From the NCBI GenBank assembly GCA_020723505.1, contig DYIT01000008.1:14579-78578 (forward strand): a stretch of 64,000 nt of DNA, given 5' to 3'. The DNA comes from Candidatus Kuenenia stuttgartensis (GTDB lineage Bacteria > Planctomycetota > JAKEIC01 > DYIT01). The number at the start of each line of letters is the position of its first letter. The stretch's first letter is position 1. A model generated the notes under the pieces. The model saw only the letters and a program-made list of their open reading frames with translations, ran no database searches and was not told the DNA's origin. The position numbers and the translations under genes are program-made. This document shows, one piece after another, positions 5,659 through 60,616 of this stretch.

Positions 5659-7989
5659 TTGGGAAAGGAAACGAAGGGCATCCTGGGTCCGGGGGCAAGG
5701 CGGGCGGCGGGTTTTGCGACTTGCTTTCTGGTCGGATTCATCACGGCGACATGGGCGGCGGGGGCGGAGAAGAAGGAAAAGCCCGCTCCCGAAGCCAGGT
5801 GGGAGGCGGTATTCCCCGAGGATCAGGTGCTCGAAATCCGCCTCGAGATTGCGCGCGAGGACTGGGAAAAGATTATGAGGAGGCCTTTCGAGAACGTCCG
5901 TGCCCGGTTCCGCTGCGGCCAGGTCGCAATCGACGCCATTGCCGTCAGGGTGAAGGGCAACTCGTCGGCAGGGGTGCCGAGCGAACGGAAGTCGCTCAAG
6001 CTCGATTTCGACGCGTACGACAAGAAGGCCTCTTTCCACGGCGCGGTCAAGCTGAACCTGCACAACGCGTTCAAGGACCCCACCCTGATGCGGGAATTCC
6101 TCGCTTACCGGCTCTTCAAGGCCGCCGGGGTTCCATCGAGCCGCGCGGGGTTCGCGAGGGTCTTCGTCCGTATCGGGGACGAAAAGGAGAGATATCTCGG
6201 CCTCTACACCACCGTCCAGCAGGCCGACCGCCTGTTCCTGCAGCAGAACTTCAGGAACGCGGAAGGGAACCTGTGGAAGGGGGAGGCTGGTAGCGATTTC
6301 ACGTGGTTCGGCGATGATCCCGAGCCGTACGGGGGATACGAGCTCAACTCGAACGGCAAGCGGGGGGACTATTCCCGGCTCATCGAGCTCGTGAAGACCG
6401 TCAACCAGGCGCCGGACTCCTCTTTCGCCGCTGAAATCGAGAAGCGCCTCGACGTGGACAGGCTGCTCTCCTATATCGCGGTCAACACGCTTCTTTCCAA
6501 TCTCGACAGTCCTTCCGGCAGCGGTCACAACTATTACCTTTATCATGACCCGGAAGCGGACCGGTTCACGGTAATCCCGTGGGACCTGAACGAGGCTTTC
6601 GGCAACTTCAAGATGCAGGAAGGCTCGGACATGCTGGAGATGTCGATTGACGAGCCGTATTCGGGCGAAAAGATACTGTTCAAGCGGATCCTCTCCGTCG
6701 CCAGGTTCAGGGACAAGTACCGGCAGATTCTCAAGACCATCTGCTCCGGACCGTTTTCGCCGGCGAACATGAACCGGGAAATCGACCGCCTGGTGAAGCT
6801 CATAGGCAGGGCTGTCGAGGAGGACTCGATGAAGCCCTATTCCACGGATGATTTCCGCAGGGGCGTCGAGTCGGACATCCAGGCGAGGGGTCCGTTCGAC
6901 AGGGGCGGCGGGATTCTCGGGCTCAAGTCGTTCGTCGCCGGAAGAACCACGTCGGTGGCCGAGCAGCTAGCCGGCAAGTCCAAAGGGGTGAAACCCCGGG
7001 GCAATTCCTTCATGCCTCCTCCTGCATCCACCGGGCCGGTGAAGGCGGCCCCAGCGCTCGCAGGAGGCGCTCTTTTCATCCTTTCCGACGAAGGCGTGCT
7101 GTCCAGGTTTCCGCTCGATACCATGAAGACCGCGGCTTCTGCCATTCTCCCGAAGGCGGTTCAAATCGCGGGACGCGGCATGCCGGACAGGCCGGGCGGG
7201 GATGAGATGCTCAAGCGCATGGACCGCGACGGGGACGGCAGGATTACGCAGAAGGAATTCGAGGGGCCTCCGGAGGTGTTCAAGCGCCTCGACAGGAACA
7301 GGGACGGGGCGCTCGACAGGGATGAAATAAGGTCAGGAGACAGGCGCGGAGACGACCCGGGCAGGCGCCAGGGCCCGGAACCCGGGGGCGAGAGCCGCGA
7401 GATGGCGGTGTACGCCGGGGAAACCGTCGTTGCGGTGGTCGGCCCGAACACCCTGTACTTGTTCTCTGCGTCCGATCTCTCGCCGCTGGGGCACAACCGC
7501 TTCGGGGAGCCCGCTGGCGGCCCCTTCGACAAGAAGGGAAGGCCGTCTTCCCGCAACGCGCCGTCGGTTTCCGGCGAAGGGGATCTGCTCTGGATTCTAT
7601 CGGGTTACCGCGTCCTGCGCGTTGACCTCAAGGAAATGAAGGTGAAGGCCGACGTCGATCTGCCTGCCGGTCTCGACGGCCGGATGGAGGCGGAGAGAAT
7701 CAAGCGGCTGGACGGCAACGGCGACGGCAGGGTGGACAGGATGGAGTTCAGGGGGCCGCCCGAGATGTTCGACCATGCGGACCGGAATCGCGACGGATTC
7801 CTCGACGCGAAGGAAATCCGGGAGCTTCCTCCGCTGCCCGGGGAGGACAGGCAGGGGGCCTCTGCGAAAATCCTCAGATCCGGCGAAGAGCTCGTGGCAG
7901 TGCTCGGGGATTCGGTCTTCAGGCTCGACCCGAAAACCCTGGAAATCAGGGGAACGGCGAAGCTCGAAAAAGGGAAGGAAAAGAAGTAA
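5659..7989 (+). CDS. Secreted CotH-family atypical kinase with two C-terminal EF-hand pairs
   Basis: 776-aa ORF with a TTG start 6 nt after GGTGAGGAG and a signal-like N-terminus. CotH motifs include VRVKGNSS...SLKLDFD and GHNYYLYHDPEADRFTVIPWDLNEAFGNF. EF-hand loops are DRDGDGRITQKEF/DRNRDGALDRDEI (7201-7332) and DGNGDGRVDRMEF/DRNRDGFLDAKEI (7681-7825). Confidence 0.85.
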   Translation: MGKETKGILGPGARRAAGFATCFLVGFITATWAAGAEKKEKPAPEARWEAVFPEDQVLEIRLEIAREDWEKIMRRPFENVRARFRCGQVAIDAIAVRVKGNSSAGVPSERKSLKLDFDAYDKKASFHGAVKLNLHNAFKDPTLMREFLAYRLFKAAGVPSSRAGFARVFVRIGDEKERYLGLYTTVQQADRLFLQQNFRNAEGNLWKGEAGSDFTWFGDDPEPYGGYELNSNGKRGDYSRLIELVKTVNQAPDSSFAAEIEKRLDVDRLLSYIAVNTLLSNLDSPSGSGHNYYLYHDPEADRFTVIPWDLNEAFGNFKMQEGSDMLEMSIDEPYSGEKILFKRILSVARFRDKYRQILKTICSGPFSPANMNREIDRLVKLIGRAVEEDSMKPYSTDDFRRGVESDIQARGPFDRGGGILGLKSFVAGRTTSVAEQLAGKSKGVKPRGNSFMPPPASTGPVKAAPALAGGALFILSDEGVLSRFPLDTMKTAASAILPKAVQIAGRGMPDRPGGDEMLKRMDRDGDGRITQKEFEGPPEVFKRLDRNRDGALDRDEIRSGDRRGDDPGRRQGPEPGGESREMAVYAGETVVAVVGPNTLYLFSASDLSPLGHNRFGEPAGGPFDKKGRPSSRNAPSVSGEGDLLWILSGYRVLRVDLKEMKVKADVDLPAGLDGRMEAERIKRLDGNGDGRVDRMEFRGPPEMFDHADRNRDGFLDAKEIRELPPLPGEDRQGASAKILRSGEELVAVLGDSVFRLDPKTLEIRGTAKLEKGKEKK

Positions 7990-8259
7990 CTAATTCCACA
8001 CGAAGATGGTGTATCGTTTGCGATGGCCCAGCTGGCGTTTTTCGATACGTGGCACGTAATCGCCAGAGATGCGGAGCACAGTGCAAGGGAGAAGCGGTTC
8101 TTCTGCATCGCGAGAAAGGGGTCAGGTCGACTGTTGACGTTTGTCAATCCAGTCCGGATCGAGAGATTCAAGCATATAAACTCATTCCAGGAATTGGACT
8201 CCCTCCTAATCAGGCAACGGCGCAATCAGGGAATTTCTCGGGGCATTCAAAGTCGACTT

Positions 8260-9615
8260 TCATCGCTTCGTCAAAATGAATTCCGCCAGGTCCGAAATCA
8301 CCTCCTTCGAGACGTGGAGCGGCAGGGTGTATTCCATGGGCGTGGCCTTGCCCTTGCCGTGCATGAAGCAATGATTGAGCGCAGGATAGGATTTGAGAAC
8401 CGCGTTGCTCCGGCCGTCGAACCCCTTGCGCCAAAGGGCGAAGTCCTCCATCGTTACCTGGTAGTCGCGCTCGCCCTGCAGCACCAGAACCGGCTTCTCG
8501 ATTGAGGCAGCCTCTTCAGCCGGCCGGTATGTCCGCAAGTCAATCCAGTAGCGGGCGGGGCACCCCAGGGGCAGCTGTCCCGGCGGGGTGTCAGGGGAGA
8601 GTGAGGGGTCCTTGGCTCTTGCCGCCTGTTCCTTAAGGCGTTCGAGGTTCTTCTTCTCGGTCTCCGAGACGGATCCGTCCAGGGAATAGATGTAGGCGTA
8701 CTGGTCGAGAATCAGGTCTTCGAGCGGTCTGGCCGCGCCTGCGAGCACCACGAACCCGGCCGCGGACGGACAGCGCTTCGCAATTCGGGGAATCATCATG
8801 CCGCCCAGGCTGTGGCCGAGGATGAAGACCTTCGACTTGTCCACGCCGGGGGTCTTTGCCATGAGTTCCGCGGCGAGGACCGCGTCGTCCACGGTTTCCT
8901 CGTTTATCGTGAGCGCTCCCGCGCCCGTGTTCATGGAGACCATCCTCGATCCGTGAACGAGCGTCCTCTTGTCGTAGCGCAGCACGGCGACTCCCGAGGA
9001 AGCGAGGCCCCAGGCGATGTCCTTGAACGGCTTGTTGGGCCCGATGGTTTCGTCCCGGTCGTTGGGTCCGGACCCGTGCACAAGCACGATGGCCGGGAAG
9101 GGGCCCTCCCCCTTGGGCAGCGCAAGGGTCGCAGGCAGCTCCCAACCCTCGGCTCCGAACCTGAGCTCCTTCTCCTCGAACGCCGACTGATCGACGTAGG
9201 ACGGGGCCTTGTACGGCATCTCCTTCCGGGTGGGAACATAGAAGAAGCCCGTTATTCCGCCTTTCATGACGAACGCGACCTTGACGTCGAATCCGCCTTT
9301 TTCGAACTTGCAGGAGACGAACGACACGGGACGATCCTCGTGCATTTCGTTCCGGACCGAGACGATTTCCTTGAACGGGCCGAATCGCTCGATGGCCGCG
9401 GACCAGGCTTCCTTGAGTTTCTCGGGAGGAATCTGCTTCTTGACGCTCTCGTCGATCATTGCAGCTGCGTCCTCGTGTTTGCCCTCGGACAGCAGCGTCA
9501 CGAACTTCCTCGCCGCCTCCTCGAAGCGGCTAAAATCCGGTTCCTGCTTTTCCTGGCCGCTGGAAAATCCGCAGACGGCCGTAAGGAAGAGGAGAAATGC
9601 AATGGCTGATTTCAT
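8260..9615 (-). CDS. Secreted alpha/beta-hydrolase
   Basis: Signal peptide MKSAIAFLLFLTAVCGFSS starts at ATG 9615. The 36 upstream codons in the track ORF overlap the methylase gene and are rejected. The nucleophile elbow ILGHSLGG is present, and the acid/His region (GERDYQV...LNHCF) is consistent with the fold. Confidence 0.8.
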   Translation of the reverse strand: MKSAIAFLLFLTAVCGFSSGQEKQEPDFSRFEEAARKFVTLLSEGKHEDAAAMIDESVKKQIPPEKLKEAWSAAIERFGPFKEIVSVRNEMHEDRPVSFVSCKFEKGGFDVKVAFVMKGGITGFFYVPTRKEMPYKAPSYVDQSAFEEKELRFGAEGWELPATLALPKGEGPFPAIVLVHGSGPNDRDETIGPNKPFKDIAWGLASSGVAVLRYDKRTLVHGSRMVSMNTGAGALTINEETVDDAVLAAELMAKTPGVDKSKVFILGHSLGGMMIPRIAKRCPSAAGFVVLAGAARPLEDLILDQYAYIYSLDGSVSETEKKNLERLKEQAARAKDPSLSPDTPPGQLPLGCPARYWIDLRTYRPAEEAASIEKPVLVLQGERDYQVTMEDFALWRKGFDGRSNAVLKSYPALNHCFMHGKGKATPMEYTLPLHVSKEVISDLAEFILTKR

Positions 9616-10568
9616 GCGTGCTTCCTGAAAGAGTTCGACAATTTCACGCTTTTGAAAAAGGTCGATTTCCGCGGCTGCTTGAATCGCGGTTTTTGCGGTG
9701 GAATCAGTATTGAATTCCGGCATGCATCCGGTCTCATGATGTTCATGGCCTCGAACCTGCGTATGGAAAGGTCCAGGAATTTCCTCTCCGTATCTATCCC
9801 GACGAACCTGCGGCCCAGTGAGACGGCCGCCATGCCGGTTGTCGAGCTTCCGGTGAACGGATCAAGAACGAGGTCGCCCGGCTGCGTCGAGGCGCGTATG
9901 ATTCTCTCCAAAAGCTTGAGGGGCTTCTGAGTCGGATGCTTGCCCTGCTTCTTCTCATCAGGTCCCGGGGCGGTGAGCGACCAGACATCCCGCATCTGTC
10001 TTCCCAGGTTTTCAGCCTTCATTTCCTTGTAGTTGAACACGTGCCTCGATTTCTTGTCCGGAGCTGCCCAGATGATTGTCTCATGCGAATGAGTGAAGTA
10101 TCTGCAGCTCAGGTTCGGAGGGGCGTTGGTCTTGAACCACACGATGGAATTGAGCATTTTGAATCCCAGTTCCTGCATGGCGAAGCCGATTGAATAGATG
10201 GCATGCTGTGTTCCGGAGACCCAAAGCGAGCCGTCTGCTTCCAGCGCGTTTCTGCAAGCCGAAAGCCACTTCCTGTTGAAATCATGATTCCAGGAAACAC
10301 CCCGCGATTTATCCCATTTCCCCTTGTTCACCGAAACCTGCTTCCCCGCATGACAGGTGAATCCGTCATTGGACAGGAAGTAGGGCGGATCCGCAAAGAT
10401 GAGGTCGATATCCTTGAGACCCTGAAGGATATCAAGACAGTCCCCGTGATAGAGGACGAAATAGCCGCGAGCATCCCTGAAATATGGCTTTAGCTTTATA
10501 GGATTCTTGGCGATGCTGCGCTCCCTGGATATTCGATTGTTCTTCATCGCTTCTCGCTTGGGAATCAT
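9612..10568 (-). CDS. Beta-class N6-adenine/N4-cytosine DNA methyltransferase
   Basis: Motif IV DPPY (LIFADPPYFLS) precedes motif I (VLDPFTGSSTTG), which is the order seen in N4/N6 MTase-family enzymes. ATGA overlaps occur at both ends, with the endonuclease stop and with the hydrolase start. The gene is visibly AT-richer than its flanks. Confidence 0.9.
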   Translation of the reverse strand: MIPKREAMKNNRISRERSIAKNPIKLKPYFRDARGYFVLYHGDCLDILQGLKDIDLIFADPPYFLSNDGFTCHAGKQVSVNKGKWDKSRGVSWNHDFNRKWLSACRNALEADGSLWVSGTQHAIYSIGFAMQELGFKMLNSIVWFKTNAPPNLSCRYFTHSHETIIWAAPDKKSRHVFNYKEMKAENLGRQMRDVWSLTAPGPDEKKQGKHPTQKPLKLLERIIRASTQPGDLVLDPFTGSSTTGMAAVSLGRRFVGIDTERKFLDLSIRRFEAMNIMRPDACRNSILIPPQKPRFKQPRKSTFFKSVKLSNSFRKHA

Positions 10569-11242
10569 TCGATTCCGAAGACCTCCTTCATGAACCTCTT
10601 CCTGAAATAGATGGCGACTCTTTTATCACAAAGGGTCTTGCTTAGCACCCTGGAATAGAGCTGCCTGTATGGTTTGGAGTCCTTGGTCCTCAATTGGAGA
10701 TAGACTCCGTTTGAAGTATGGAACTTTCCCGACTTGCAAATGTGTTTATGGAGTTCATCCAACACTTGATTGTAGGAAGATTCGAATTCCATGAACCAGC
10801 GCGTCCCATCCCTTGCATCAATCATGGCGGCATGTGCGATGTACCAATTCCCCGGGTCCTTCGGGACTTTGCAGATAGGTATGATAATCATTCTGCTTGT
10901 CTTCTTGTGGATTGAGGAAGATTTGAAAGGCTGCTTCCTGATTAAATCGTCTATATCGTCCCCGAACTGGTGGATGGCTATTGTTTCCAGAGGATCGCCA
11001 TCGGGTTTGGATTTGTATGTCTTGAGGTCTCCGTCTTCGAAATCAAGCAACTGCGAGCTTTGAGGGAGGCCAATCGCCTTTTCCATCAACTGACCAGCTT
11101 TGCCTTTGTTTTCTCGAATTTCTTCCATGTCAGCATTGGGAATGAATTCACGGAACCTGAGCATCAGGAATGCCTGAATCCGCTCCAATGCCTCGTCGAT
11201 TTTCATGAACTCCAGTATAGTTCGGAGAACTAAAATCGCCAT
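10565..11242 (-). CDS. MutH/Sau3AI-family type II restriction endonuclease (GATC-type specificity inferred)
   Basis: KGKAGQLMEKAIG...LLDFEDGDLKTYKS...GDPLETIAI aligns by eye with E. coli MutH KGWIGVLLEIWLG...EQDFAALGVELKTIPV...GRPLETTFV. C-terminal GVYLQLRTK / IYFRKRFM match MutH GEYLQIRPK / FYLKKNF. It is ATGA-coupled to the methylase gene. Confidence 0.7.
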   Translation of the reverse strand: MAILVLRTILEFMKIDEALERIQAFLMLRFREFIPNADMEEIRENKGKAGQLMEKAIGLPQSSQLLDFEDGDLKTYKSKPDGDPLETIAIHQFGDDIDDLIRKQPFKSSSIHKKTSRMIIIPICKVPKDPGNWYIAHAAMIDARDGTRWFMEFESSYNQVLDELHKHICKSGKFHTSNGVYLQLRTKDSKPYRQLYSRVLSKTLCDKRVAIYFRKRFMKEVFGIE

Positions 11243-11552: not shown

Positions 11553-12011
11553 ATGAGGCGACTTGTTCTTGCACCTGTAATCTGTCTCTTCGCAACCGGT
11601 TGCGCTTGCATGGATTACGACAATCTCAGGGTTACAAAATACCTTGATTCGAAGACCACCTGGATTAATCGGCCTTCAGAGCGGCTGGCGCTGTCACCGC
11701 TCGTGCTTCCCGTGGGATTGTCAAGCGTGGCTCTGGACGTATTTCTGGTTCATCCGGTTACGAGGATTCCCGGCTCCATCGATCGCACCTACGACCTCCT
11801 CTGGAGAACGGAAATCAGGAGCTATTACCTTAGGGTTCTGCTGTTCATTCCCTCGGTGATAGCCAGCCCGGTCTATTTCATGTTCGACTTGCTCGGGCAT
11901 TCGGTTTTCGATTTGGACGACCCGAGACCATCGCGCCTTTTCGCCAGCCGCATGGATGATGCCGGCGCGTTCTCGGTGGCACGGCAGGGATCGGAGATTC
12001 TCCTGGATTGA
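11553..12011 (+). CDS. Small lipoprotein (YceK/DUF1375-like), paralog 1
   Basis: Lipobox LFATGC after MRRLVLAPVIC. The shared core with the next gene is D(Y/R)DNLR...LSP(L/V)VLPVGL..(V/L)ALD.F(L/V)(V/L)HPV. The family assignment is tentative. Confidence 0.65.
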   Translation: MRRLVLAPVICLFATGCACMDYDNLRVTKYLDSKTTWINRPSERLALSPLVLPVGLSSVALDVFLVHPVTRIPGSIDRTYDLLWRTEIRSYYLRVLLFIPSVIASPVYFMFDLLGHSVFDLDDPRPSRLFASRMDDAGAFSVARQGSEILLD

Positions 12012-12061
12012 ATGCTGATGCTCGGTTCCTTTCTACAGGAAGACATTTGGAGGAACAGGCA

Positions 12062-12487
12062 ATGAAACGCGCTGCTTTGATATTAGTGCTGGTTTCCATG
12101 TTCGCAGCAACCGGTTGCGCGATTCTGGAAAGGGACAACCTGAGGGCGTTCAACTGGGTGGAGCGGAATATGACTCCCGAATCGACGGCGATGAAGGTCA
12201 TGCTGACACCCGTTCTCGTTCCCGTGGGCCTGGGCGCTCTTGCGCTCGACCAGTTCGTCCTTCACCCGGTTTCCGTCCTGGACGACGCGGCGGACGACAT
12301 CCTTGACTTGTTCTGGGGCGAGCTTTGGAGCAGGAAATACGTGACAGGCTGCGCTGGTTTAGGCTGGTGGGCGCTTCCGCTCACTCCCGTGGCCTTCACC
12401 TTCAACTGGCTGGCGAGGTGCGTATTCGACATTCCGCACAACAACGGCTACAAGGCGCAGAGGGACCCGATTCGGGATGAAGGCTGA
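12062..12487 (+). CDS. Small lipoprotein (YceK/DUF1375-like), paralog 2
   Basis: The ATG at 12062 gives MKRAALILVLVSMFAATGC (lipobox). The 18 upstream codons in the track are not needed. It is a tandem paralog of 11553-12011. Confidence 0.65.
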   Translation: MKRAALILVLVSMFAATGCAILERDNLRAFNWVERNMTPESTAMKVMLTPVLVPVGLGALALDQFVLHPVSVLDDAADDILDLFWGELWSRKYVTGCAGLGWWALPLTPVAFTFNWLARCVFDIPHNNGYKAQRDPIRDEG

Positions 12488-12520: not shown

Positions 12521-12560
12521 AGCCCGGACAATCCGCGACTCTTCGAGGATTATCCGGGCT
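12521..12560. terminator. Bidirectional hairpin between convergent genes
   Basis: AGCCCGGACAATCC / GGATTATCCGGGCT forms a 14-bp stem with 1 mismatch and a 12-nt loop. The right arm overlaps the TAG stop (12559-12561) of the TGT-like gene. Confidence 0.45.
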
Positions 12561-14412
12561 ACAGCAGGCGTCTACACAGTTCTTCGAGCAGCATTGCGAC
12601 GCACTTCTCTGAAGCGATGTCGGCTTTTCCGCCCTTTTCAGGGATGACCACGGATTCCGGGAAGCGGGAGGAGACTGATTCGGCAATCTCCCTGTACGGG
12701 GACTTGGAAACCAGGAACAGGATGGACTTGAAATCGGCGCTGTACTTGTCCAGGAAGTCGGCAAGCCTGTCCTTCACGAGCTGCTTCTGGGGATTGAAGA
12801 TGTCGTAGGTCCGGAGCCTGTAATCGTAGCGCATCACCGGCTTGTCGAGCTCATGCGTTTCCGGCACCGGCCCGTAAAGCCCCGAGAGCGTGATTTTTTC
12901 GATTAGATTCCGCCTTTCGCCGAACCTCCCCCGGACGGCATCCATAATCCTGGTATGGGTCTTCGAGGATGCGTATGGTTTCTGCGGCGTGCAAGGCAGG
13001 ATTAGGGCGATTCTTCCCTCGGGCCTGTACTTCTTCTCGAGGATGTTGAACGAATCGCTGGTCAGTGAAAGCGAAATGACCTGCTTCTCCCCGGCCGGCC
13101 GGGCTTCCGGAGGAGGAGAAGGGGGCACGAGCAGCGTCCTGCGCGCCTCGGCCCCCGTCGCCTCATCGTTCAAAGCAAGCCAGGCGAGGGCGTCGCCGAG
13201 GTCGGATCCCTGCTTTTCGCAGTGCATGAACAAGTACGACGGATCCCCGTCGAGGAGCCCGGATTTCCCGTATTCCGCGAAGGTCCGTTTCACGGCGTAG
13301 AAGTTATGCATGGCAAGCAGCGCGTACACGCTCGACTTCCCATCCATGCGGTTCGCCGCTTCGGCGGGATCGAAGCGGGCAAGCTCCTCGAGACTGCCGC
13401 GCTCCCTGCCTTTCAGGGCTGCATGCACCCGCCCAATCCCGATTTCCCCCATCAGGCGGCAATAATCGCAGCCGCAATCCTCCAAATCCCCGTCTGTGAC
13501 GTCGTACATGGCCTTCTTCCTGCCTGCGGAATAGGAAAGTGTTTTCGCCCCCACGATGAAGCTCGATCCGTCGAATGATCCCACTCCCATGTAGGCCAGG
13601 AACGGGACTATCGGGCCCGACATGCCCAGCGCATGGACGGGCAACCCCCTGTGCTCCTCGGGAATCGAATCCATGACCGCTGAAACGATTTCGAGGATCT
13701 TCACGGAGTTCTTCGACGACGGCAGCGCAAGGGGCACAAGAGATCCCACTGCAAGGCCGAAGGCCGGAAGCGGTTTGCCCATCCCGCCGATATGCCTGAA
13801 CAGCTCCTTGACGTACGATGCCGCCATCGCGGCGTCCAGGCCGTGAACCGCCAGCATCGGCAGCGGCCGCCCCGCCTCGGGCTCTTGCGACACGCGATTG
13901 AGGAGGTCCGTTGCGTTGGCGATGCTGCGTTCGCACCTCTCCCAAGCCTCGGTCACGGCGAGCCTCGGATCGAGGGGATAGTCGAAAGACACGACGTAGT
14001 CCGCGCCGAGGCGCCTCTGGAGCATGTACGATCCGCCGGCGTCCACGTCGATGCCCATATCCACTCTGAGGTAGTCCTTCAGGCAGTCGTTCGCGTCGTG
14101 AAGAAACTGGAATCCGCCGGAGTCGAGGAAGACCGCGGGTTTCAGTCCCGGATCGGCCTCCCTTATCCACTCGAGAAGCGGTTTTTCGAGCCACCGGTCC
14201 AGTACCCTGCGCTTGACGCCGAAGTCGAGGAAATGCAGCACCTGGGAGAGGAACAGCGGATCCTTCTCCGCCCTGAGCATGAAGATTTTCAGCCACCGGA
14301 ACAGTCCGCCGTTCCTGTAGAACCCGGGAGGGCCGGTCATGAAGCCGAGCACGGGGAAATACGCCGGTTTCTGGATTTGGCGCCACGATTTCTCTGATTC
14401 CTGTCCATCCAT
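12559..14412 (-). CDS. TGT-fold (tRNA-guanine transglycosylase-like) protein fused to an ArcS-type DUF5591 domain
   Basis: 617 aa. The N-terminal ~400 aa carry FLD97SGGFQ, GVGSFD281, the Zn motif C313GCDYC318 and LLAMHNFY. The C-terminal ~170 aa carry LPCTPQKPYASSKTH (nt 12955-12996), which equals PC-X3-KPY-X2-S-X2-H. I see no PUA domain. The gene is monocistronic. Confidence 0.65.
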   Translation of the reverse strand: MDGQESEKSWRQIQKPAYFPVLGFMTGPPGFYRNGGLFRWLKIFMLRAEKDPLFLSQVLHFLDFGVKRRVLDRWLEKPLLEWIREADPGLKPAVFLDSGGFQFLHDANDCLKDYLRVDMGIDVDAGGSYMLQRRLGADYVVSFDYPLDPRLAVTEAWERCERSIANATDLLNRVSQEPEAGRPLPMLAVHGLDAAMAASYVKELFRHIGGMGKPLPAFGLAVGSLVPLALPSSKNSVKILEIVSAVMDSIPEEHRGLPVHALGMSGPIVPFLAYMGVGSFDGSSFIVGAKTLSYSAGRKKAMYDVTDGDLEDCGCDYCRLMGEIGIGRVHAALKGRERGSLEELARFDPAEAANRMDGKSSVYALLAMHNFYAVKRTFAEYGKSGLLDGDPSYLFMHCEKQGSDLGDALAWLALNDEATGAEARRTLLVPPSPPPEARPAGEKQVISLSLTSDSFNILEKKYRPEGRIALILPCTPQKPYASSKTHTRIMDAVRGRFGERRNLIEKITLSGLYGPVPETHELDKPVMRYDYRLRTYDIFNPQKQLVKDRLADFLDKYSADFKSILFLVSKSPYREIAESVSSRFPESVVIPEKGGKADIASEKCVAMLLEELCRRLL

Positions 14413-14694: not shown

Positions 14695-14728
14695 TTCCAC
14701 ACGAAGCGCGTTCGTGCTTCATGTGGAA
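14695..14728. repeat. REP-like hairpin TTCCACACGAAGC-N8-GCTTCATGTGGAA
   Basis: 13-bp arms with 1 mismatch. It belongs to the same family as 14776-14809 and 56112-56145. A half copy (TTCCACACGAAG) lies at 7994-8005. Confidence 0.7.
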
Positions 14729-14775
14729 TTCGTGTACGAGAACGTGGACGGGAACAAGTACGCGAAGCGGTTAAT

Positions 14776-14809
14776 CCGCACGAAGCGCGAGGCACCATGC
14801 TTCGTACGG
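14776..14809. repeat. REP-like hairpin CCGCACGAAGC-N12-GCTTCGTACGG
   Basis: Second member of the CACGAAGC...GCTTCGTG family, 48 nt after the first. Its loop GCGAGGCACCAT resembles the loop GCAAAGTCCCAT of the 56112 copy. Confidence 0.65.
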
Positions 14810-14845
14810 ATTATTCACGTTCCTTCGGGCGTTATCCGCGTTAGT

Positions 14846-17800
14846 ATGATGGATGGGATTTCGACCGGACATGGTGATGAAAAGGGGGGGAGGGTGGCGG
14901 TTCCGGACAGGAAAATCGGGGGCAGGTTCGCGCTGCTCGCGAGACTCGGCGGCGGCGCGACGGGCGAGGTCTGGCTGGCGGAGGACGGGGCTGCCGGACT
15001 CAGGACCGCGGTGAAGATATCGGGACCGGATGCCGGATCCCGGTCGTCGCTCGAGGCGGAGGCGGGCATTCTCAAGGCCTTGTCGCATCCCGCCGTGCCG
15101 AAGGTCCTTGCCGAGGGGACGGGCTGGTTCGCCATGGAATACGCCATGGGTTCGAAGCTTTCCAAAGCGATGGCCTCCCCGCTGCCTGCGGTCCAGGCAT
15201 GCTCGCAGATTGCCCGCGCGCTCGAACACGTGCACGGCAGGGGCTTCGTGCATGGCGACGTCAACCCCGAACACATACTGGTCTCGGAGGAAGGGCGCGC
15301 CATGCTCGTTGATTTCTCCCACGCTTCCGGCCCGGGTCTCGATTCCCGGCCCGGCAGGGGGACCCCGGGATTCATGGCGCCCGAGAACCTGATGGGGCTC
15401 GAACTGGGACCCGCTGGCGACGTCTATTCCCTCGGCGCGTCCCTCTATTGCGCGCTTTCCGGCGCTCCCCCATATCCCGCAACGGGCGCAGGCGAGGAAG
15501 CGGCCCGGATGAACCGGGAAGCTCCGAAACCCGTCCATCTCGTCAATCCCGCAGTGGACGAAAAGCTCGCCGCCGCAATAATGAAGGCAATCCATCCCGA
15601 CCCGAAGGATAGGTACAGGGACGCCGCGGAGTTCGCCGGCGCCCTGGAGAGGTGGGCCGACCTGCGGGGCGGCGCATTCGTGCCGGGCAGGATGTCCGGA
15701 AGATCGGAGGATCTCGACAGGGCGCTCAGAATCCACGCATGCGCGAAACCCGGGACCGGAATCGTGCTCGCCGTCACCGGCTCGAAGGGGGTCGGCAAGA
15801 CGAGGTTCATCGAGGAACTGCATTCATCAATCAGGGCCCTTGGGCTCGCGTCGATGCTCGTGAGATGCCGCGGGCTTTCAGATGCCGAAGCGGAGAAGAG
15901 GATATCCTGGGCGCTGGGGACGCTTGCGGCATCCTCCCGGCGGGCCTCGGCGCCGGGTCTTCCGCCGGCGCTGCTGGTATGCGGGCTTGAGAACGCCGAG
16001 CCCTTGCGCATGGCGCTCAAGGGCGCGGGCTCTTCTCCTTGTCCGTTCGCGGCTGCGTCGCTTCCTCCCGGCACTGTCCTGCCTTCAATGCCCAAGGACT
16101 TCAGGGTCGAGCGCATAGAGCTGCTTCCGCTCAAGCATCGGGAAATCGAGGAGGCGGTGAACGGCAAAGCGTGGGCGGGAGCCTTTTCCCCGAAGGTTCT
16201 CGAATCCATCGTCGCGGTTTCCGCCGGTCTTCCCGGCGTGGCCATGGGCATCGTCGAGGCCGCGATGCGCGCGACCGGGAAGCAGGGCGGGATTCTGTCT
16301 CCGGTTCTTCCCTTCGAAGCGGGGGAAGCAGGAGCAGGGGCGTTCGCGGGGAGGGTAATCCGGATGGATTCGCAGGCGAGGTCGGCTGCCGAAGCGGTCG
16401 CCGTTCTTGGCGAGGAGGCCTCGGAAGAGACCGTCGCCCGGACCTCCGGGCTCGGGACCAGGCGGGCTAAGATTGCCGTGGAGAAGCTCTGTTCCGCCTC
16501 GGTCCTGGTGAGGCAGGCCGGCATGCTGAGGTTCGCCGTGCAGGGAGCGGAGGAATCCATTCTCGCGTCGGCTGAACCCGGCATGCTCAAGGCCATGAAT
16601 CTCGCCGCTGCGAAGGCCCTCAGGAAGACCTCCGGGCCGGTGCAGAGGATTGCTCTCCACATGCTCAGGGCCGGTGAAATCTCGGAAGGGCTCGGCATGC
16701 TCTCTGCGCATCCGCAATCTCGCGCGCAAGCGGAGGTGGAGGATGCCCTCAGGCGCGCTGCTGATTCCCTGAAGGGCAGCCTCGAGGGTGCTCAGGCCGA
16801 CGCGGCGCTGGGGAGGATGCTGGTGGCGGCCGGGAAGCACGGGGAGGCCGAAGAGAGGATCCGGTCCGCGCTCAGGTGGGGCGGGTTGAGCGGAAAAGAG
16901 AGGGAGAACCTCGCCATCGCCGCCGCCGATACCGGTCTTGCGATTGGGGACTTCGCCGGCGCCATGGAGGCCCTCTCCGGCATTCCGCGGTTTCCGGCCG
17001 GACCTGCGCGGGCGCTCCTCGCCGCGGCCGAGGCGAAGAGGGGGCTCGGGAGATTCGAGGAGGCGAGGGAGGAACTTGGATTCGCGCTCGTTTCCGGCGG
17101 ACTTGCGCCGGAGGAGACAGCAGGTTGCCACCACGTCCTCGGGAAGATAGCGCTCGACCTCGCGGAGATTTCCAGGGCCGAGGCCAATTTCGCGAAGGCG
17201 CTGAATCATGCTGAGGGTTCGGGCGACTTCCGCCTCGAGACCTCGTGCCTCGTCAATCTCGGCCTTTGCAGCATAGCCGCCGCCGATTTCGCCGAAGCGG
17301 GAAGCAGGCTTCTCAGGGCGGGCGAAATCAACATGCGGAGGAAGGCGGGACTCGAGGCCGAGATTGACCTTGCGACTGGAATCGTCTCGGCCATGACCGG
17401 CGACTCTCCAGGCGGATTCGCCGCGCTTGCAAGGGCTCTTTCCGCCTCGCGCCGGGGACTCAGGCCTGCCCGCGGGACGGCGCTGTCCGCGATAGGCAAG
17501 GCGTATTCAGCATCCGGGGGGCTGAGAAAGGCAGGAAGATATCTCGCGGCCGCCAGGGAGGCGCTGCGCGCGGCCGGCGCTGTTGCCGAGGAGCTCTCGG
17601 CCTCGACTAGGCTCGCGCTTGTGCTTTTGAGGGAGAAGAGGTTCCGGGAGGCGGATGATCTCAAGGCGGATTTCGAAGGCAGGACCGAGCCGCTGTTCAG
17701 GGCGGTCTTCCTGCTGGTTGACTCCGAGGTCCATCTGTCCCGCGGGGACGCGGCGCGGGCGCTGGATTCCGCCCGCGCCGGGATTGGGTGCCTTCCTACG

Positions 17801-19753
17801 CACGTCGCGGCCCCTCAGGTGCGGTCGAGGCTTGCGGCGGCGGAAGCCTCGTGCCTTCTCAGGAGCGGCGGCGCCGGGGACGCGGAGCGGGCCTTCGCGA
17901 CCGCGGTTTCCCTTCTCGAACCGTTCCCTGTGCACCTGCTCGAAGTCGCCACGGACTTCGCCGCATCTGCAGCCGCATGCGCGAATCTTGCCCCGGAGAC
18001 GAGGCGGTTCGCGCTTTCGGCCCTGGACGACGCGAGGCGGAAGCTCTCTTCCGCGCCGGATGCCGCGTTGAACCTCAGGGCTTCCAACGCCGCCGCCGCC
18101 CTCGAAGCGGCTCTAAGCCCTCCCGCAGCCCGGAGCCCTGCGCCGGCGATCGGCTCCTCCGCAAGCCAGGGGACGCCGCCGGGCGGAGGAGGGCGCGCCG
18201 TCGCGGACCGCGAGAAGAGGCTCCTGATTCTCCAGGCCGTTGCCAGGAGGATGAACCAGGAGCAGGACTTCGCCCGGATACCCGAGATGGTCCTCGACAT
18301 GGCGTTGTCGGCGGTCGGGGCCCAGCGCGGCTTCATCCTGGCGTCGGGGGGAGGGTTCGAGATTCTCGCGGCAAGAAACATGGAGGGGGGCAGGGTTCTC
18401 AGTCCCGAGGGAGAGATTAGCTTTTCCATTGCGAAGCAAGTGGTCGAGACCGGGCTGCCGGTGATGACGGAAGATGCGACGTGCGACGGGAGGTTCATGG
18501 ACAACGTGAGCGTTCGTAACCTGAATCTCAAGTCGGTCATGTGCGTGCCGCTGTTGGGCCCGGCCGGAGTCCTCGGCGCCCTGTACGCCGAGGACAGGCA
18601 GAGAGCCGGGGCGTTCACCGAGGACGACCTGTGGTTCCTGTCGATGTTCGCGGAACACGCGGCGGTTGCCCTGTCCAACGCGCGGCTCCGAAACGAAATC
18701 GAGCGGCGCGGAAAGGAACTGGACAGGCTGAACAGGGAGCTTTGCGAAAAGGTAGCGCGCCAGGAGGAATCCATCGCGGACCTGAAGAGCAAGGTTCCGG
18801 CGGACGGATCGACGGGGCCGTCGCGGTACCCCGGGATGGTGGGTATTAGCGCGGCCATGCAGAAGGTCTTCTCGCTCATGGACCGCATTGCGGCGTCCGA
18901 GGCGCCGGTGCTGATTGTGGGCCGGAGCGGGACGGGCAAGGAGCTGGTTGCGAAGGCGATTCATGCGTGCGGGCCTAGGAAGGCGGCGGTTTTCGCGGCG
19001 GAGAACTGCGCTGCGCTCACTGAGACGCTGCTCGAGAGCGAGCTTTTCGGCCACGAGAAGGGATCCTTCACGGGCGCGTTCGAAACCAAGAAGGGGCTGT
19101 TCGAGCTGGCGGACGGGGGCACGCTGTTCCTGGACGAGGTTTCGGACATGAGCCACGGCCTGCAGAGCAAGCTCCTTAGGGTCTTGCAGGAGGGCGAAAT
19201 CCGCAGGGTGGGGGGCAAGGCGTCGATACGGGTTGACGCGAGGATAATATCGGCCACGAACAGGGAGCTCGAGGATATGGTCAAGGCGGGATCGTTCAGG
19301 GAGGACCTCTATTACAGGCTCAACGTGCTCAAGATAGAGGTTCCGCCGCTCAAGGACCGGAAGGAGGACATCCCGCTCCTGGCAAGGCATTTCCTGAACC
19401 GTGTGGCGAAGCCCGGAGAGAAGCTCGAGTTGAGCGGCGGGGCGCTGGATTTGCTCGCTGCCTACGACTGGCCTGGGAACGTGCGCGAGCTCGAGAACGA
19501 GATACTCCGCGCTGCGGCGCTGGGTGGGAAGGTGATAGGCGCGGATGATCTTTCTCCGAGGCTCAAGGAAGCTCATTCCGACCAGCCCCCGGAGGCAGGC
19601 CTTGACATGGGCGAGAGGGTGAAAGCACTCGAGATTGAGATGATACGTGACGCTCTGGCCCGGGCGGGCGGAAACAAGTCGAAAGCCGCGCAGATCCTCG
19701 GCATCAGCAGGTTCGGGCTCCAGAAGAAGATGGACAGGTACGGGATGTCGTGA
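14846..19753 (+). CDS. Ser/Thr-kinase-like / STAND P-loop NTPase / TPR / GAF / sigma-54 enhancer-binding protein fusion
   Basis: N-terminal kinase fold: GGGATGEVWLA, AVKI, FVHGDVNPEHILV, LVDFS, GFMAPE. P-loop: VTGSKGVGKTRF. About 700 aa of Ala/Leu-rich TPR-like repeats follow, then a GAF domain (RGFILASGGG...MCVPLL...GALYAED). The sigma-54 AAA+ core shows GRSGTGKE, ESELFGHEKGSFTGA, GGTLFLDEV and RVGG, followed by a Fis-type HTH (SKAAQILGISRFGLQKKM). Start set at ATG 14846; the 44 upstream track codons run across REP hairpins. Confidence 0.85.
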   Translation: MMDGISTGHGDEKGGRVAVPDRKIGGRFALLARLGGGATGEVWLAEDGAAGLRTAVKISGPDAGSRSSLEAEAGILKALSHPAVPKVLAEGTGWFAMEYAMGSKLSKAMASPLPAVQACSQIARALEHVHGRGFVHGDVNPEHILVSEEGRAMLVDFSHASGPGLDSRPGRGTPGFMAPENLMGLELGPAGDVYSLGASLYCALSGAPPYPATGAGEEAARMNREAPKPVHLVNPAVDEKLAAAIMKAIHPDPKDRYRDAAEFAGALERWADLRGGAFVPGRMSGRSEDLDRALRIHACAKPGTGIVLAVTGSKGVGKTRFIEELHSSIRALGLASMLVRCRGLSDAEAEKRISWALGTLAASSRRASAPGLPPALLVCGLENAEPLRMALKGAGSSPCPFAAASLPPGTVLPSMPKDFRVERIELLPLKHREIEEAVNGKAWAGAFSPKVLESIVAVSAGLPGVAMGIVEAAMRATGKQGGILSPVLPFEAGEAGAGAFAGRVIRMDSQARSAAEAVAVLGEEASEETVARTSGLGTRRAKIAVEKLCSASVLVRQAGMLRFAVQGAEESILASAEPGMLKAMNLAAAKALRKTSGPVQRIALHMLRAGEISEGLGMLSAHPQSRAQAEVEDALRRAADSLKGSLEGAQADAALGRMLVAAGKHGEAEERIRSALRWGGLSGKERENLAIAAADTGLAIGDFAGAMEALSGIPRFPAGPARALLAAAEAKRGLGRFEEAREELGFALVSGGLAPEETAGCHHVLGKIALDLAEISRAEANFAKALNHAEGSGDFRLETSCLVNLGLCSIAAADFAEAGSRLLRAGEINMRRKAGLEAEIDLATGIVSAMTGDSPGGFAALARALSASRRGLRPARGTALSAIGKAYSASGGLRKAGRYLAAAREALRAAGAVAEELSASTRLALVLLREKRFREADDLKADFEGRTEPLFRAVFLLVDSEVHLSRGDAARALDSARAGIGCLPTHVAAPQVRSRLAAAEASCLLRSGGAGDAERAFATAVSLLEPFPVHLLEVATDFAASAAACANLAPETRRFALSALDDARRKLSSAPDAALNLRASNAAAALEAALSPPAARSPAPAIGSSASQGTPPGGGGRAVADREKRLLILQAVARRMNQEQDFARIPEMVLDMALSAVGAQRGFILASGGGFEILAARNMEGGRVLSPEGEISFSIAKQVVETGLPVMTEDATCDGRFMDNVSVRNLNLKSVMCVPLLGPAGVLGALYAEDRQRAGAFTEDDLWFLSMFAEHAAVALSNARLRNEIERRGKELDRLNRELCEKVARQEESIADLKSKVPADGSTGPSRYPGMVGISAAMQKVFSLMDRIAASEAPVLIVGRSGTGKELVAKAIHACGPRKAAVFAAENCAALTETLLESELFGHEKGSFTGAFETKKGLFELADGGTLFLDEVSDMSHGLQSKLLRVLQEGEIRRVGGKASIRVDARIISATNRELEDMVKAGSFREDLYYRLNVLKIEVPPLKDRKEDIPLLARHFLNRVAKPGEKLELSGGALDLLAAYDWPGNVRELENEILRAAALGGKVIGADDLSPRLKEAHSDQPPEAGLDMGERVKALEIEMIRDALARAGGNKSKAAQILGISRFGLQKKMDRYGMS

Positions 19754-47243: not shown

Positions 47244-47324
47244 CCTGCATATAGGATTGGTATTAATTAATCCATTTGTAGCTAGATATTGCGCGGGCAA
47301 ACTATCAAGACTGAGGATAGCAGT

Positions 47325-48251
47325 ATGGACGTGACTACAAATTCTAATCAAACTTTTATTTGTTCCTTTAATGATTTCATTGAAAAGGCTGAAGAGTTAT
47401 GCCCTCGTAAGGAAAAATGGATTGAGTGGGTTTTTAGGGGCCATGGAAGCTTAGATTGGGAACTCGAGACTTCAATAGAAAGGCTATGCAATAGAATTCA
47501 TGGTAATCTTACATATACGAAGGAATTAGAAATTGAATTACTAAGGGAATTTCAAAGACGGTATCATTTCTATTCGACTAATATTCCTAGAGAAAGCGAT
47601 TTATTGCAATGGTTGTCGATTATGCGACACAATGGTGCACCAACTAGACTGCTTGATTTTACTTATTCCATTTATATTGCTGCATATTTCGCCGTTGAGG
47701 AATACGTGGCAATGAAATCATCCAAAGGTTCTGATATATATGGTTTTGATATATGGGCTATTAATTCGACTGTTTTAGGGGAAACGGTTCGATTAAACAG
47801 TAAGCGGCTTGCTCCAAAGAAGAGTATAGAAGATAATGTCAATTCAGATAACGTCGTAAACAAATTCCTATTCGAACACAACCGAAGAAGAGGTGTAATC
47901 CAAGTCACGCCCTTCAGATTCAACGAAAAGCAATCATTTCAAAAAGGTATTTTTATTTGTCCAATAGATATAACGACTAGTTTTAAAGACAATCTGTTTG
48001 CAAACGGGTCAAATGAAAAGGATTATGTGAAACGCCTTACGTTTGATGAAAAGAAATGGGAGGGGAGTTGCAGAGGTTCCCCTAAGAACGGCAGGGATAT
48101 GGGATGGGAGTTTCTTGAAAGACTTGATGATATGAATATCTCACGTAAGTCTCTTTTTCCGGGATTGCAGGGATTTGCCGAGTCGCTTTCAAAGTATCAT
48201 CATTCGTATTGGAAAATAACCACGAAAAATCTGAATAAAAGCCGCAGATAG
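47325..48251 (+). CDS. FRG-domain protein
   Basis: WIEWVFRGHGSLDWELETSIER ... LQWLSIMRHNGAPTRLLDFTYSIYIAAYFA matches the (F/Y)RGq...a(q/r)HyG.PTrlLDwT pattern of FRG domains. The gene is strongly AT-richer than its neighbours. Confidence 0.7.
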   Translation: MDVTTNSNQTFICSFNDFIEKAEELCPRKEKWIEWVFRGHGSLDWELETSIERLCNRIHGNLTYTKELEIELLREFQRRYHFYSTNIPRESDLLQWLSIMRHNGAPTRLLDFTYSIYIAAYFAVEEYVAMKSSKGSDIYGFDIWAINSTVLGETVRLNSKRLAPKKSIEDNVNSDNVVNKFLFEHNRRRGVIQVTPFRFNEKQSFQKGIFICPIDITTSFKDNLFANGSNEKDYVKRLTFDEKKWEGSCRGSPKNGRDMGWEFLERLDDMNISRKSLFPGLQGFAESLSKYHHSYWKITTKNLNKSRR

Positions 48252-59108: not shown

Positions 59109-59250
59109 CTGCGGGCTTTCAATTTAGCTGTAGACAAAGTATCATAATCAACCTACAGCTTCAAGTGAAGATTCCCGCTTTTCAAGATTTCAGGATACAG
59201 GATTCAAGTCCGGAGGCGGGGTAATCCGCGTCCTTCGGGAACAAACCGGA

Positions 59251-60546: not shown

Positions 60547-60616
60547 TTGATTCCCCTTCACTGTGCATGTCGTAACTGTCTTCCCAATTAACGCAAGGAG
60601 GAACCGATCCAAGGCT

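Follow-up and report, generated by a model that had tools for sequence, protein, structure and literature searches.

In a 64,000-nucleotide stretch of the Candidatus Kuenenia stuttgartensis genome (contig DYIT01000008.1; hereafter the window), a minus-strand gene encodes a 617-aa protein in which a fold of the tRNA-guanine transglycosylase (TGT) superfamily is followed, within one chain, by a DUF5591 domain of the type seen in archaeal archaeosine synthase (ArcS). We put the probability at roughly 0.55 that this TGT-DUF5591 protein is a DNA 7-cyano-7-deazaguanine (preQ0) insertase and amidine synthase in a single polypeptide, i.e., an enzyme whose substrate would be DNA and whose product would be archaeosine in DNA (dG+). 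The evidence favours DNA over tRNA as the substrate, because relatives of the protein adjoin defence modules, its base-binding pocket carries a histidine, PUA, C2 and C3 domains are missing, and its halves match DpdA2 and ArcS2 of Vibrio phage nt-1.

A TGT fold and an ArcS-type domain in one bacterial protein

The original prediction, made from the DNA alone, had proposed a TGT-fold N-terminal half joined to an ArcS-type (DUF5591) C-terminal half, and profile, fold and motif searches bore this out. The open reading frame (ORF) begins with ATG and cannot be extended upstream in frame. Both flanking genes lie on the opposite strand and the gene is therefore monocistronic, as had likewise been stated. 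Its layout is as follows (GC3, GC content at third codon positions).

12559..14412, minus strand: TGT-DUF5591 gene; ATG start; 617-aa protein made up of TGT-fold and DUF5591 halves; monocistronic; GC3 0.78, as in the host
13135..14367, minus strand: TGT-fold (TIM-barrel) base-exchange domain, residues ~16-426, as placed by ArcTGT alignment, family invariance and Foldseek
13039..13134, minus strand: interdomain linker, residues ~427-458, with low model confidence and poor conservation
12562..13038, minus strand: DUF5591 (ArcS C1 / ArcS2-type) domain, residues ~459-617, as placed by Pfam PF17884, NCBIfam ArcS, the 2Q07 alignment and nt-1 ArcS2

Pfam assigned DUF5591 (PF17884) to residues 459-595 with 53.6 bits (cut-off 26), while the TGT model (PF01702), run on the single sequence, reached 25.0 bits over residues 93-319, slightly short of its cut-off of 26.3. 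A profile built from 46 relatives matched Pyrococcus horikoshii ArcTGT (1IQ8) at E 6e-29 and AF0587 (2Q07, consisting of DUF5591 and PUA) at E 4.9e-10. Foldseek searches with an AlphaFold2 model of the protein (predicted local distance difference test, pLDDT, 84.7; predicted TM-score, pTM, 0.85) gave matches between E 5.7e-12 and 5e-9, the best being ArcTGT 1IQ8 (5.7e-12), followed by many bacterial and eukaryotic TGTs (~1e-9) and DpdA 7UI4 (4.6e-9). Profile and fold thus place residues ~16-426 in the TGT fold, with ArcTGT closest, and residues ~459-617 in DUF5591/ArcS-C1. PUA, TGT_C1 and TGT_C2 domains were absent from the protein in the Pfam scan, in agreement with the earlier claim that PUA is lacking.

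Curated models of the characterized enzymes drew the boundaries of this assignment. The ArcTGT model TIGR00432 scored 25.6 bits (cut-off 350) on the N-terminal half, and the NCBIfam ArcS model NF040592 scored 56.7 bits (cut-off 440) over model positions 286-410 of 575 only, neither reaching equivalog level. The DpdA models of NCBIfam and PADLOC did not match at E ≤ 0.1, nor did any other PADLOC model. The curated models leave the window protein outside DpdA, ArcTGT and ArcS, as a member of the TGT superfamily and of the DUF5591 family.

A further alternative, which we consider unlikely, though of some substance, is a bacterial modification of tRNA or another RNA by ArcTGT-like preQ0 insertion and subsequent ArcS-type formation of archaeosine (G+), i.e., the archaeal pathway in one protein. 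The nearest sequence relatives of both halves are tRNA enzymes (1IQ8, E 6e-29; the ArcS models), and the gene is monocistronic and native in composition. The protein has no PUA, C2 or C3 domain, which speaks against this alternative, but ArcTGT can reportedly do without its PUA domain (Sabina and Soll 2006, as cited in PMC11298593), and Thermococcus kodakarensis ArcS takes substrates down to the preQ0 nucleoside (PMC11298593).

Key residues are kept in both halves

The motif positions given in the original prediction are exact, namely FLDSGGFQ at residues 95-102 (D97), GVGSFD at 276-281 (D281), CGCDYC at 313-318 and LLAMHNFY at 365-372. The archaeosine-synthase motif stood as well: residues 473-486, PCTPQKPYASSKTH, are an exact instance of PC-X3-KPY-X2-S-X2-H as defined in PMC10516641 and PMC5699537 and are kept across the family; the end coordinate of 12996 had slipped by 3 nt and is 12999.

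12955..12999, minus strand: LPCTPQKPYASSKTH motif, residues 472-486, an exact PC-X3-KPY-X2-S-X2-H; C474 (nt 12991-12993) would attack the nitrile as nucleophile
14122-14124 (D97), 13981-13983 (D144), 13843-13845 (H190) and 13570-13572 (D281), minus strand: TGT-domain key residues, from the ArcTGT alignment
13459-13476 (C313/C315/C318) and 13306-13308 (H369), minus strand: zinc site, aligned to ArcTGT C279/C281/C284/H307

Conservation was read from the alignment of 46 relatives. D97, D144, D281, C313, C315, C318 and H369 are unchanged in 46/46 aligned sequences, as are C474, P479 and Y480 of the ArcS motif, with P473, K478, S483 and H486 conserved in at least 90%. That catalytic, zinc-binding and ArcS-motif residues are all kept across relatives of ~33% identity implies selection on both activities, and both halves look catalytically competent.

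In the profile alignment to 1IQ8, D97/D144/H190/D281 correspond to ArcTGT D95/D130/Q169/D249, such that a histidine occupies the place of the pocket glutamine. The pair H190-G191 is invariant in the 46 family sequences, whereas ArcTGT (1IQ8), Thermotoga maritima TGT (2ASH) and Zymomonas mobilis TGT (4DY1; the glutamine presumably being Q203) have Gln-Gly. A histidine is found at the equivalent position of nt-1 DpdA2 (FHGN, aligned) and of phage 9g DpdA (FHAG), the latter read by eye from the sequence since hhalign against 9g DpdA reached the nucleophile region alone. In DpdA of Salmonella Montevideo, His181 and Asp130 read the Watson-Crick edge (PMC10164549), and H190 would be the counterpart of this His181. 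From these few sequences, the pocket histidine appears to be a trait common to DNA transglycosylases; its contrast with the glutamine of every aligned tRNA TGT argues against the RNA alternative.

The same residues bear on the idea, which we hold to be highly improbable, of a free-base or nucleoside enzyme that makes an amidine 7-deazapurine in salvage or secondary metabolism, with no nucleic-acid substrate. ArcS acts on the preQ0 nucleoside and 5′-monophosphate (PMC11298593), and 7-deazapurine secondary-metabolite clusters exist (bioRxiv 10.64898/2026.04.15.718813), but the known clusters of this kind are devoid of TGT-type genes (same source). Moreover, the TGT half conserves the full catalytic apparatus for a covalent sugar-enzyme intermediate, and the neighbours described below are nucleic-acid enzymes, not tailoring enzymes or transporters.

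A rare family spread over several phyla

A profile search of 1.84 billion representative proteins returned 152 family clusters at E ≤ 1e-30, a number to which seemingly free-standing halves, in part perhaps fragments, contribute; the TGT-DUF5591 family is rare. The 80 genomic loci collected come mostly from Poribacteria, where the family is nearly universal in the sampled genomes, and further from Cyanobacteria, Chloroflexota, Verrucomicrobiota, Planctomycetota and one Thermoplasmata archaeon. In the searched collections the window protein has two close relatives, one from a Planctomycetota metagenome-assembled genome (locus L006, 63% identical) and one at 60% (P0002), all others being ~33% identical; the source of L006 makes a planctomycetal origin of the window probable. 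The subclade of the window protein lacks an N-terminal β-hairpin (GRIG...TP) that the rest of the family retains. Those relatives that carry a name in their sources are labelled 'tRNA-guanine transglycosylase', '7-cyano-7-deazaguanine tRNA-ribosyltransferase' or 'hypothetical protein'.

Viral collections yielded little. The family alignment picked up no member in 2.9 million IMG/VR viral contigs, and a scan of metagenome contigs with the single window protein found no relative, both scans being pattern-based, so that absence is weak evidence. Among 50,697 phage genomes, tblastn gave no match to the TGT half and four weak matches to the DUF5591 half, three at the nt-1/CZ01 ArcS2 locus (E 0.03) and one in a Methanobacterium virus. 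Full-text literature searches on DUF5591 and PF17884 led to the phage paper alone, with no description of the bacterial TGT-DUF5591 architecture.

Several Poribacteria chromosomes carry a pair of paralogues (L024/L045, L057/L065, L034/L072 and L020/L078). Three of the four combine a copy preceded by a DNA methylase gene (L065, L072, L078) with one preceded by QueD/PTPS (L057, L034, L020). The archaeal member (L093, 1350-2951) is a shorter variant of 533 aa that lies a few kb from genes (7478-10951) for a ParA/CbiA-like ATPase and a 1,299-aa DEAD/ResIII helicase, a setting that suggests a similar defence-type context in archaea.

Relatives are coupled to 7-deazaguanine synthesis genes

To describe the genomic context of the relatives, ORFs were called at all loci, neighbours were clustered and representatives annotated, and precomputed Pfam tables were added. 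In 13 Poribacteria loci the gene immediately upstream is QueD/PTPS, with translational coupling in L091, where QueD/PTPS ends 1 bp ahead of the TGT-DUF5591 start codon. In two Verrucomicrobiota loci (L077, L081), a same-strand row of QueF, QueC (183 bits, cut-off 150), QueE-like, QueD, FolE2 (280 bits, cut-off 215) and ParB_N genes precedes TGT-DUF5591, and in a Chloroflexia locus (L084) QueC-like and FolE2 genes lie shortly upstream. The proposal of a 7-deazaguanine-type nucleic-acid modification enzyme has been strengthened by this coupling and by the DNA-directed defence neighbours of the relatives.

In 11 Poribacteria loci, the QueD-linked copy is followed ~2.7 kb downstream by a radical-SAM gene of the KamA family (lysine 2,3-aminomutase-like; 14165-15226 in L036), which comes after genes for an aminotransferase and a cyclophilin. 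This neighbour is of interest since lysine is transferred by archaeal ArcS, which depends on a radical-SAM partner. We set the gene aside as an analogue of RaSEA, the radical-SAM subunit of ArcS, as the 11 loci are 95-98% identical at this gene and represent the synteny of one lineage.

Relatives adjoin DNA-acting and defence genes

In L081 the ParB_N gene overlaps the start of TGT-DUF5591 by 8 bp, and ParB_N is present in L077, too. Downstream in both loci follow a small ORF and genes for an AAA+ protein, a phospholipase D (PLD) family nuclease, a HerA-like ATPase and two BrxD-like ATPases. Seven cyanobacterial and Chloroflexota loci encode a DpdJ-like helicase of ~1,320-1,460 aa (NCBIfam DpdJ 201 bits, cut-off 800; PADLOC 214 bits), which is directly downstream in 6/7 and convergent in L074; where gene ends were read (L063, L054), the gap is 20-30 bp. 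A gene for a DpdK-like PLD protein comes after the helicase gene in three of the seven. NurA-HerA shares one operon with TGT-DUF5591 in two Chloroflexota loci (L058, L073), with a 14-bp gap or an overlap. In L085 (11840-19978), the genes for DISARM DrmA (1,370 bits) and DrmB (683 bits), both above cut-off, abut TGT-DUF5591 in convergent orientation. The same locus carries a gene for a UvrD-like helicase and shows no methylase among the ORFs annotated; if L085 is methylase-free, the deazaguanine enzyme may substitute for the DISARM methylase.

Twelve cyanobacterial loci from ~10 distinct genomes carry DUF262 (PADLOC NsnA 197 bits; PD-T4-2_A) and HEPN genes downstream, and Spirulina (L060) has DpdJ-like, DUF262 and HEPN genes in a single downstream row. 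One of these defence modules is present at 13/13 cyanobacterial loci with a readable downstream flank. In Poribacteria, a CcrM-like DNA methyltransferase (MTase) gene lies immediately upstream in 16 loci from ~14 distinct genomes; a Sau3AI/MutH-family nuclease gene is found between it and TGT-DUF5591 in 7/16, and in the remainder the MTase gene abuts TGT-DUF5591 or a different ORF intervenes. The notable presence of an MTase homologous to that of the window, with or without a Sau3AI-family nuclease, beside these distant Poribacteria relatives could reflect synergy or defence-island clustering.

Modification of RNA could find some support here, since HEPN (RNase-type) and RtcR-like neighbours occur at some loci and the gene, near-universal in sampled Poribacteria, often sits among housekeeping genes. 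Set against this, operon partners in five phyla are DNA-acting (ParB-like, DpdJ/K-like, DrmAB, NurA-HerA, MTase with restriction endonuclease, PLD nucleases). Bacterial tRNA is, to our knowledge, not reported to contain G+, which also counts against it.

The same neighbourhoods raise the question of a defence effector or sensor aimed at invaders, in which the DUF5591 cysteine would trap the dPreQ0 (2′-deoxy-7-cyano-7-deazaguanosine) of modified phage DNA, or base exchange would corrupt incoming DNA beside nucleases. Recurrence beside self-sufficient defence systems that need no extra modifier (type II restriction-modification (R-M), DUF262 with HEPN, DISARM) would fit, and glycosylases against modified phage bases are described as an emerging defence theme (bioRxiv 10.1101/2025.10.29.685425). 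Coupling to preQ0-synthesis genes (QueD 1 bp upstream, the que rows), however, argues that preQ0 is consumed, not sensed, and no PADLOC model matches the window protein. In addition, 7-deazaguanine insertion by TGTs is generally regarded as all but irreversible, so that excision is unlikely. We consider an effector role quite improbable, and all readings other than modification of DNA or of tRNA/RNA together receive a low probability.

Comparison with characterized systems

The closest functional parallel to a DNA insertase and amidine synthase is the two-protein system of phage nt-1, in which the TGT-fold enzyme DpdA2 puts preQ0 into DNA and a free-standing DUF5591 protein, ArcS2 (VPFG_00169), turns it into dG+; when co-expressed, the two produced dG+ in E. 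coli plasmid DNA (PMC10516641). The pair has the same two predicted activities as the two halves of the window protein. Fold matches in BFVD included the nt-1 protein R9TGF0 (464 aa), which we took as DpdA2 because it has the same length as VPFG_00171 (464 aa), and the nt-1 DUF5591 protein (root-mean-square deviation 3.7 Å over 178 columns); hhalign recovered both, the DUF5591 protein at E 3e-4. The family shares the His-Gly signature of DpdA2, and the nt-1 genes sit among que genes, as do those of some bacterial relatives. In contrast, the window protein is one chain encoded in a cellular chromosome rather than two phage proteins, identity in the fold and tblastn matches is ~13-27%, and the motif of nt-1 ArcS2 is degenerate (LC-X3-RPY-X2-S-X2-W) where that of the window protein is canonical.

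The Dpd system of S. Montevideo and other bacteria (DpdA/DpdB/DpdC for modification, DpdD-K for restriction) provides a chromosomal deazaguanine self-mark tied to restriction, with a ParB-superfamily helper (PMC10164549). Like its insertase, the TGT half has a TGT fold with three Asp, the His and a CxCx2C..H zinc site. Relatives have a ParB-superfamily helper (ParB_N in L077/L081), a DpdJ-like helicase (7 loci) and a DpdK-like PLD protein (3 loci) as neighbours, whereas the window itself has none of them and thus no Dpd-type locus. Further differences are that the second step would lead from nitrile to amidine by DUF5591, versus nitrile to amide by DpdC (DUF328), that the partners of the window family are interchangeable and mostly small, and that the DpdA hidden Markov models find no match.

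Archaeal ArcTGT, whose substrate is preQ0, is the best match in sequence and fold, with identical catalytic Asp and zinc site. The window protein differs from P. horikoshii ArcTGT (1IQ8) in lacking the C1/C2/PUA tRNA-binding domains, in having His for Gln169 and, with its subclade, in the missing N-terminal β-hairpin. With archaeal ArcS it shares a DUF5591/C1 domain with the exact PC-X3-KPY-X2-S-X2-H, preceded by a TGT-like domain; it departs from ArcS in its bacterial host, the lack of PUA, the absence of a visible RaSEA partner and a TGT half that looks catalytically competent. According to secondary sources, canonical ArcS itself consists of a TGT-like N-domain and C1, so that 'fusion' is a relative term here. 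The difference from ArcS lies in the TGT half, which retains every catalytic residue and resembles ArcTGT rather than the ArcS N-domain.

Finally, a TGT homologue has been proposed as an alternative self-DNA marking module in BREX-related 'BRC' loci rich in HerA and other ATPases (PMC12839542). The Verrucomicrobiota relatives resemble these in adjoining HerA-like and BrxD-like ATPases. The TGT/GNAT modules described there differ in being GNAT fusions, and ArcS goes unmentioned (PMC12839542).

Proposed course of the reaction

In the mechanism that we propose for DNA modification, preQ0 would be supplied by the queuosine pathway of the cell. The TGT-fold domain would flip out a guanine and D281 would attack C1′, linking sugar and enzyme in a covalent intermediate, while D97 would serve as general acid/base, D144 together with H190 would read the base and the zinc site C313/C315/C318/H369 would have a structural role; preQ0 would then be inserted. 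This step is modelled on the conserved residues. The DUF5591 domain would then activate the nitrile of the inserted preQ0, probably via C474, and the addition of an amine (ammonia or lysine) would yield the formamidine base archaeosine (in DNA, dG+) or an amidine adduct akin to it, by analogy with ArcS, ArcS2 and QueF-type chemistry (PMC5485725, PMC5699537). The substrate would most likely be the cell's own DNA, and the product may serve as a self-mark or protective mark amid restriction and phage defence, as dPreQ0 and dADG, the deoxynucleoside of 7-amido-7-deazaguanine, do in Dpd. The gene is solitary in this genome; the neighbouring R-M pair is a self-sufficient cassette inserted more recently.

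Several observations weigh against this interpretation. Substrate (DNA or RNA) and product are deduced from sequence and context. By profile, the tRNA enzyme ArcTGT (E 6e-29) lies far nearer to the TGT half than DpdA 7UI4 does (E 0.028), and the NCBIfam and PADLOC DpdA models find no match in it. The His/Gln contrast in the pocket is drawn from a handful of sequences, and H190 was equated with DpdA His181 from the description in PMC10164549. Canonical ArcS requires RaSEA to reach G+; with no RaSEA-type partner seen, the enzyme could instead yield a lysine adduct or another compound. QueF in the Verrucomicrobiota row could mean that the base inserted there is preQ1, which is nitrile-free. Neither in the window nor in the two closest relatives is there a que gene, a ParB-like protein or a dedicated nuclease partner. 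In Poribacteria, many copies are embedded in syntenic housekeeping neighbourhoods, which would also fit a housekeeping tRNA role. Finally, type II R-M, DUF262 with HEPN, and DISARM are self-sufficient, and adjacency to them could represent defence-island clustering instead of functional coupling.

We rate TGT-DUF5591 as a cellular, single-chain, ArcTGT/ArcS-derived analogue of phage DpdA2 and ArcS2 and of Dpd modification, with swappable partners. A more far-reaching proposal, tentative and in our view somewhat doubtful, is that this rare but widely spread bacterial family uses one polypeptide to write dG+ or a lysine-amidine relative into chromosomal DNA, as a self-marking plug-in for interchangeable restriction modules (DpdJ/K-like, DISARM, NurA-HerA, DUF262-HEPN, type II nucleases).

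Surroundings of the gene in the window

The TGT-DUF5591 gene lies between an α/β-hydrolase gene and a kinase/sigma-54 regulator gene, an arrangement shared with the syntenic L006, which lacks an MTase gene, a nuclease gene and two small ORFs present in the window. The orientation of the TGT-DUF5591 gene relative to the conserved flanking genes is reversed between the two (window 12559-14412, L006 10001-11830); no flanking inverted repeats offer an explanation, and nothing convincing was found among repeats flanking either the R-M insertion or the inverted gene. A promoter and terminator scan remained at background level. By tblastn, no homologue of FolE2, QueC, QueD, QueE, QueF, ParB, DpdJ or DpdK was found in the window and nothing credible with NurA, HerA, DUF262 and HEPN queries, and a Pfam scan of the window ORFs at 0.7-29 kb agreed and detected no Radical_SAM domain. 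Within these limits, neither que genes nor a radical-SAM partner were seen in the window, in line with the original prediction. The MTase and nuclease genes are the following.

10565..11242, minus strand: candidate type II restriction endonuclease of the MutH/Sau3AI family; 225 aa as listed ORF, 213 aa in the database; GC3 0.59
9612..10568, minus strand: β-class (CcrM-like) N6A/N4C DNA methyltransferase; PF01555 199.5 bits; GC3 0.67; 4-bp overlap with the nuclease gene

These two genes form a type II R-M pair in one operon. The MTase scored 234 bits with the NCBIfam CcrM model, below cut-off, and 306 bits with PADLOC MTase_II. Direct matches of the nuclease to MutH/Sau3AI models were weak (Pfam 13.9 bits, NCBIfam 23.6 bits), while a profile of the Poribacteria Sau3AI-family nucleases matched it at E 1e-5; its family comprises 15 database clusters, and homologues carry PF02976. 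One homologue lies beside genes for Dam-like and N6_N4 MTases in a DpnII-like arrangement, which supports GATC as a plausible specificity of the pair; the neighbours of other homologues are unrelated.

An AT-richer island with the R-M pair had been noted next to the gene, and indeed the stretch at 9.6-12.5 kb has a GC content of 0.48 versus ~0.62, and a GC3 of 0.59-0.70 versus 0.78 for the TGT-DUF5591 gene. Between the R-M pair and the TGT-DUF5591 gene, this stretch holds two tandem paralogous small ORFs, 11553-12011 and 12008-12487 (both plus strand; 152 and 159 aa; GC3 0.64-0.70), with a lipoprotein-like N-terminus, a common 'P(V/L)VLPVGL...ALD.F..HPV' core and no Pfam match. DNA repeats D1 and D2 lie 512-515 nt apart in this stretch, and the two ORFs are missing from L006. 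A fixed three-gene TGT/endonuclease/MTase system in this lineage was rejected, as three contexts of nuclease homologues lack a TGT gene. The contig of P0002 likewise showed no R-M genes. Because the closest relatives have no R-M pair and nuclease homologues occur elsewhere without the TGT gene, the pair is not a fixed partner, and we conclude that it is a separately and more recently acquired, self-sufficient cassette and not a proven partner.

Further features of the window were recorded. ARAGORN called a tRNA-Ser(CGA) at 18052-18136 (minus strand) inside the ORF of a 1,679-aa Ser/Thr-kinase/sigma-54 activator (14714-19753, plus strand); either the GC-rich DNA gave rise to a spurious call or the kinase ORF is not a single gene. 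A gene with an IS200-like Y1 transposase domain (PF01797; 19811-20854, plus strand) occupies a lower-GC stretch immediately 3′ of the kinase gene. Two AT-rich ORFs, 47289-48251 (plus strand; GC3 0.36) and 59204-60568 (minus strand; GC3 0.42), are probably foreign DNA; GC content is 0.43 at 47-48 kb in a genome of 60-70% GC. The ORF at 5659-7989 (plus strand) codes for a protein that combines a CotH kinase domain and several EF-hand motifs.

Implications

The literature consulted on 7-deazaguanines in DNA covers bacterial Dpd (dPreQ0, dADG) on the one hand and phage genomes (eight derivatives including dG+) on the other, and archaeosine in DNA has so far been reported from phages alone. While the phage two-protein pair and Dpd are already known, we found the bacterial single-chain TGT-DUF5591 architecture to be new to the literature searched, and the current label 'tRNA-guanine transglycosylase' is probably misleading for the family. 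If the enzyme acts as proposed, it would represent the first cellular DNA archaeosine, and the positively charged base would be a new epigenetic mark on bacterial chromosomes. The tRNA archaeosine machinery would likewise have been recruited to DNA for a second, independent time, and the family would stand for a new, minimal type of Dpd-like modification-restriction system whose origin lies in the ArcTGT/ArcS lineage, separate from that of DpdA. As dG+ in DNA blocks many restriction enzymes, the gene would also offer a compact one-gene tool to write this base into DNA. Its pairing with at least six different nuclease/helicase modules would make the family a test case for the exchange of modification and restriction modules.

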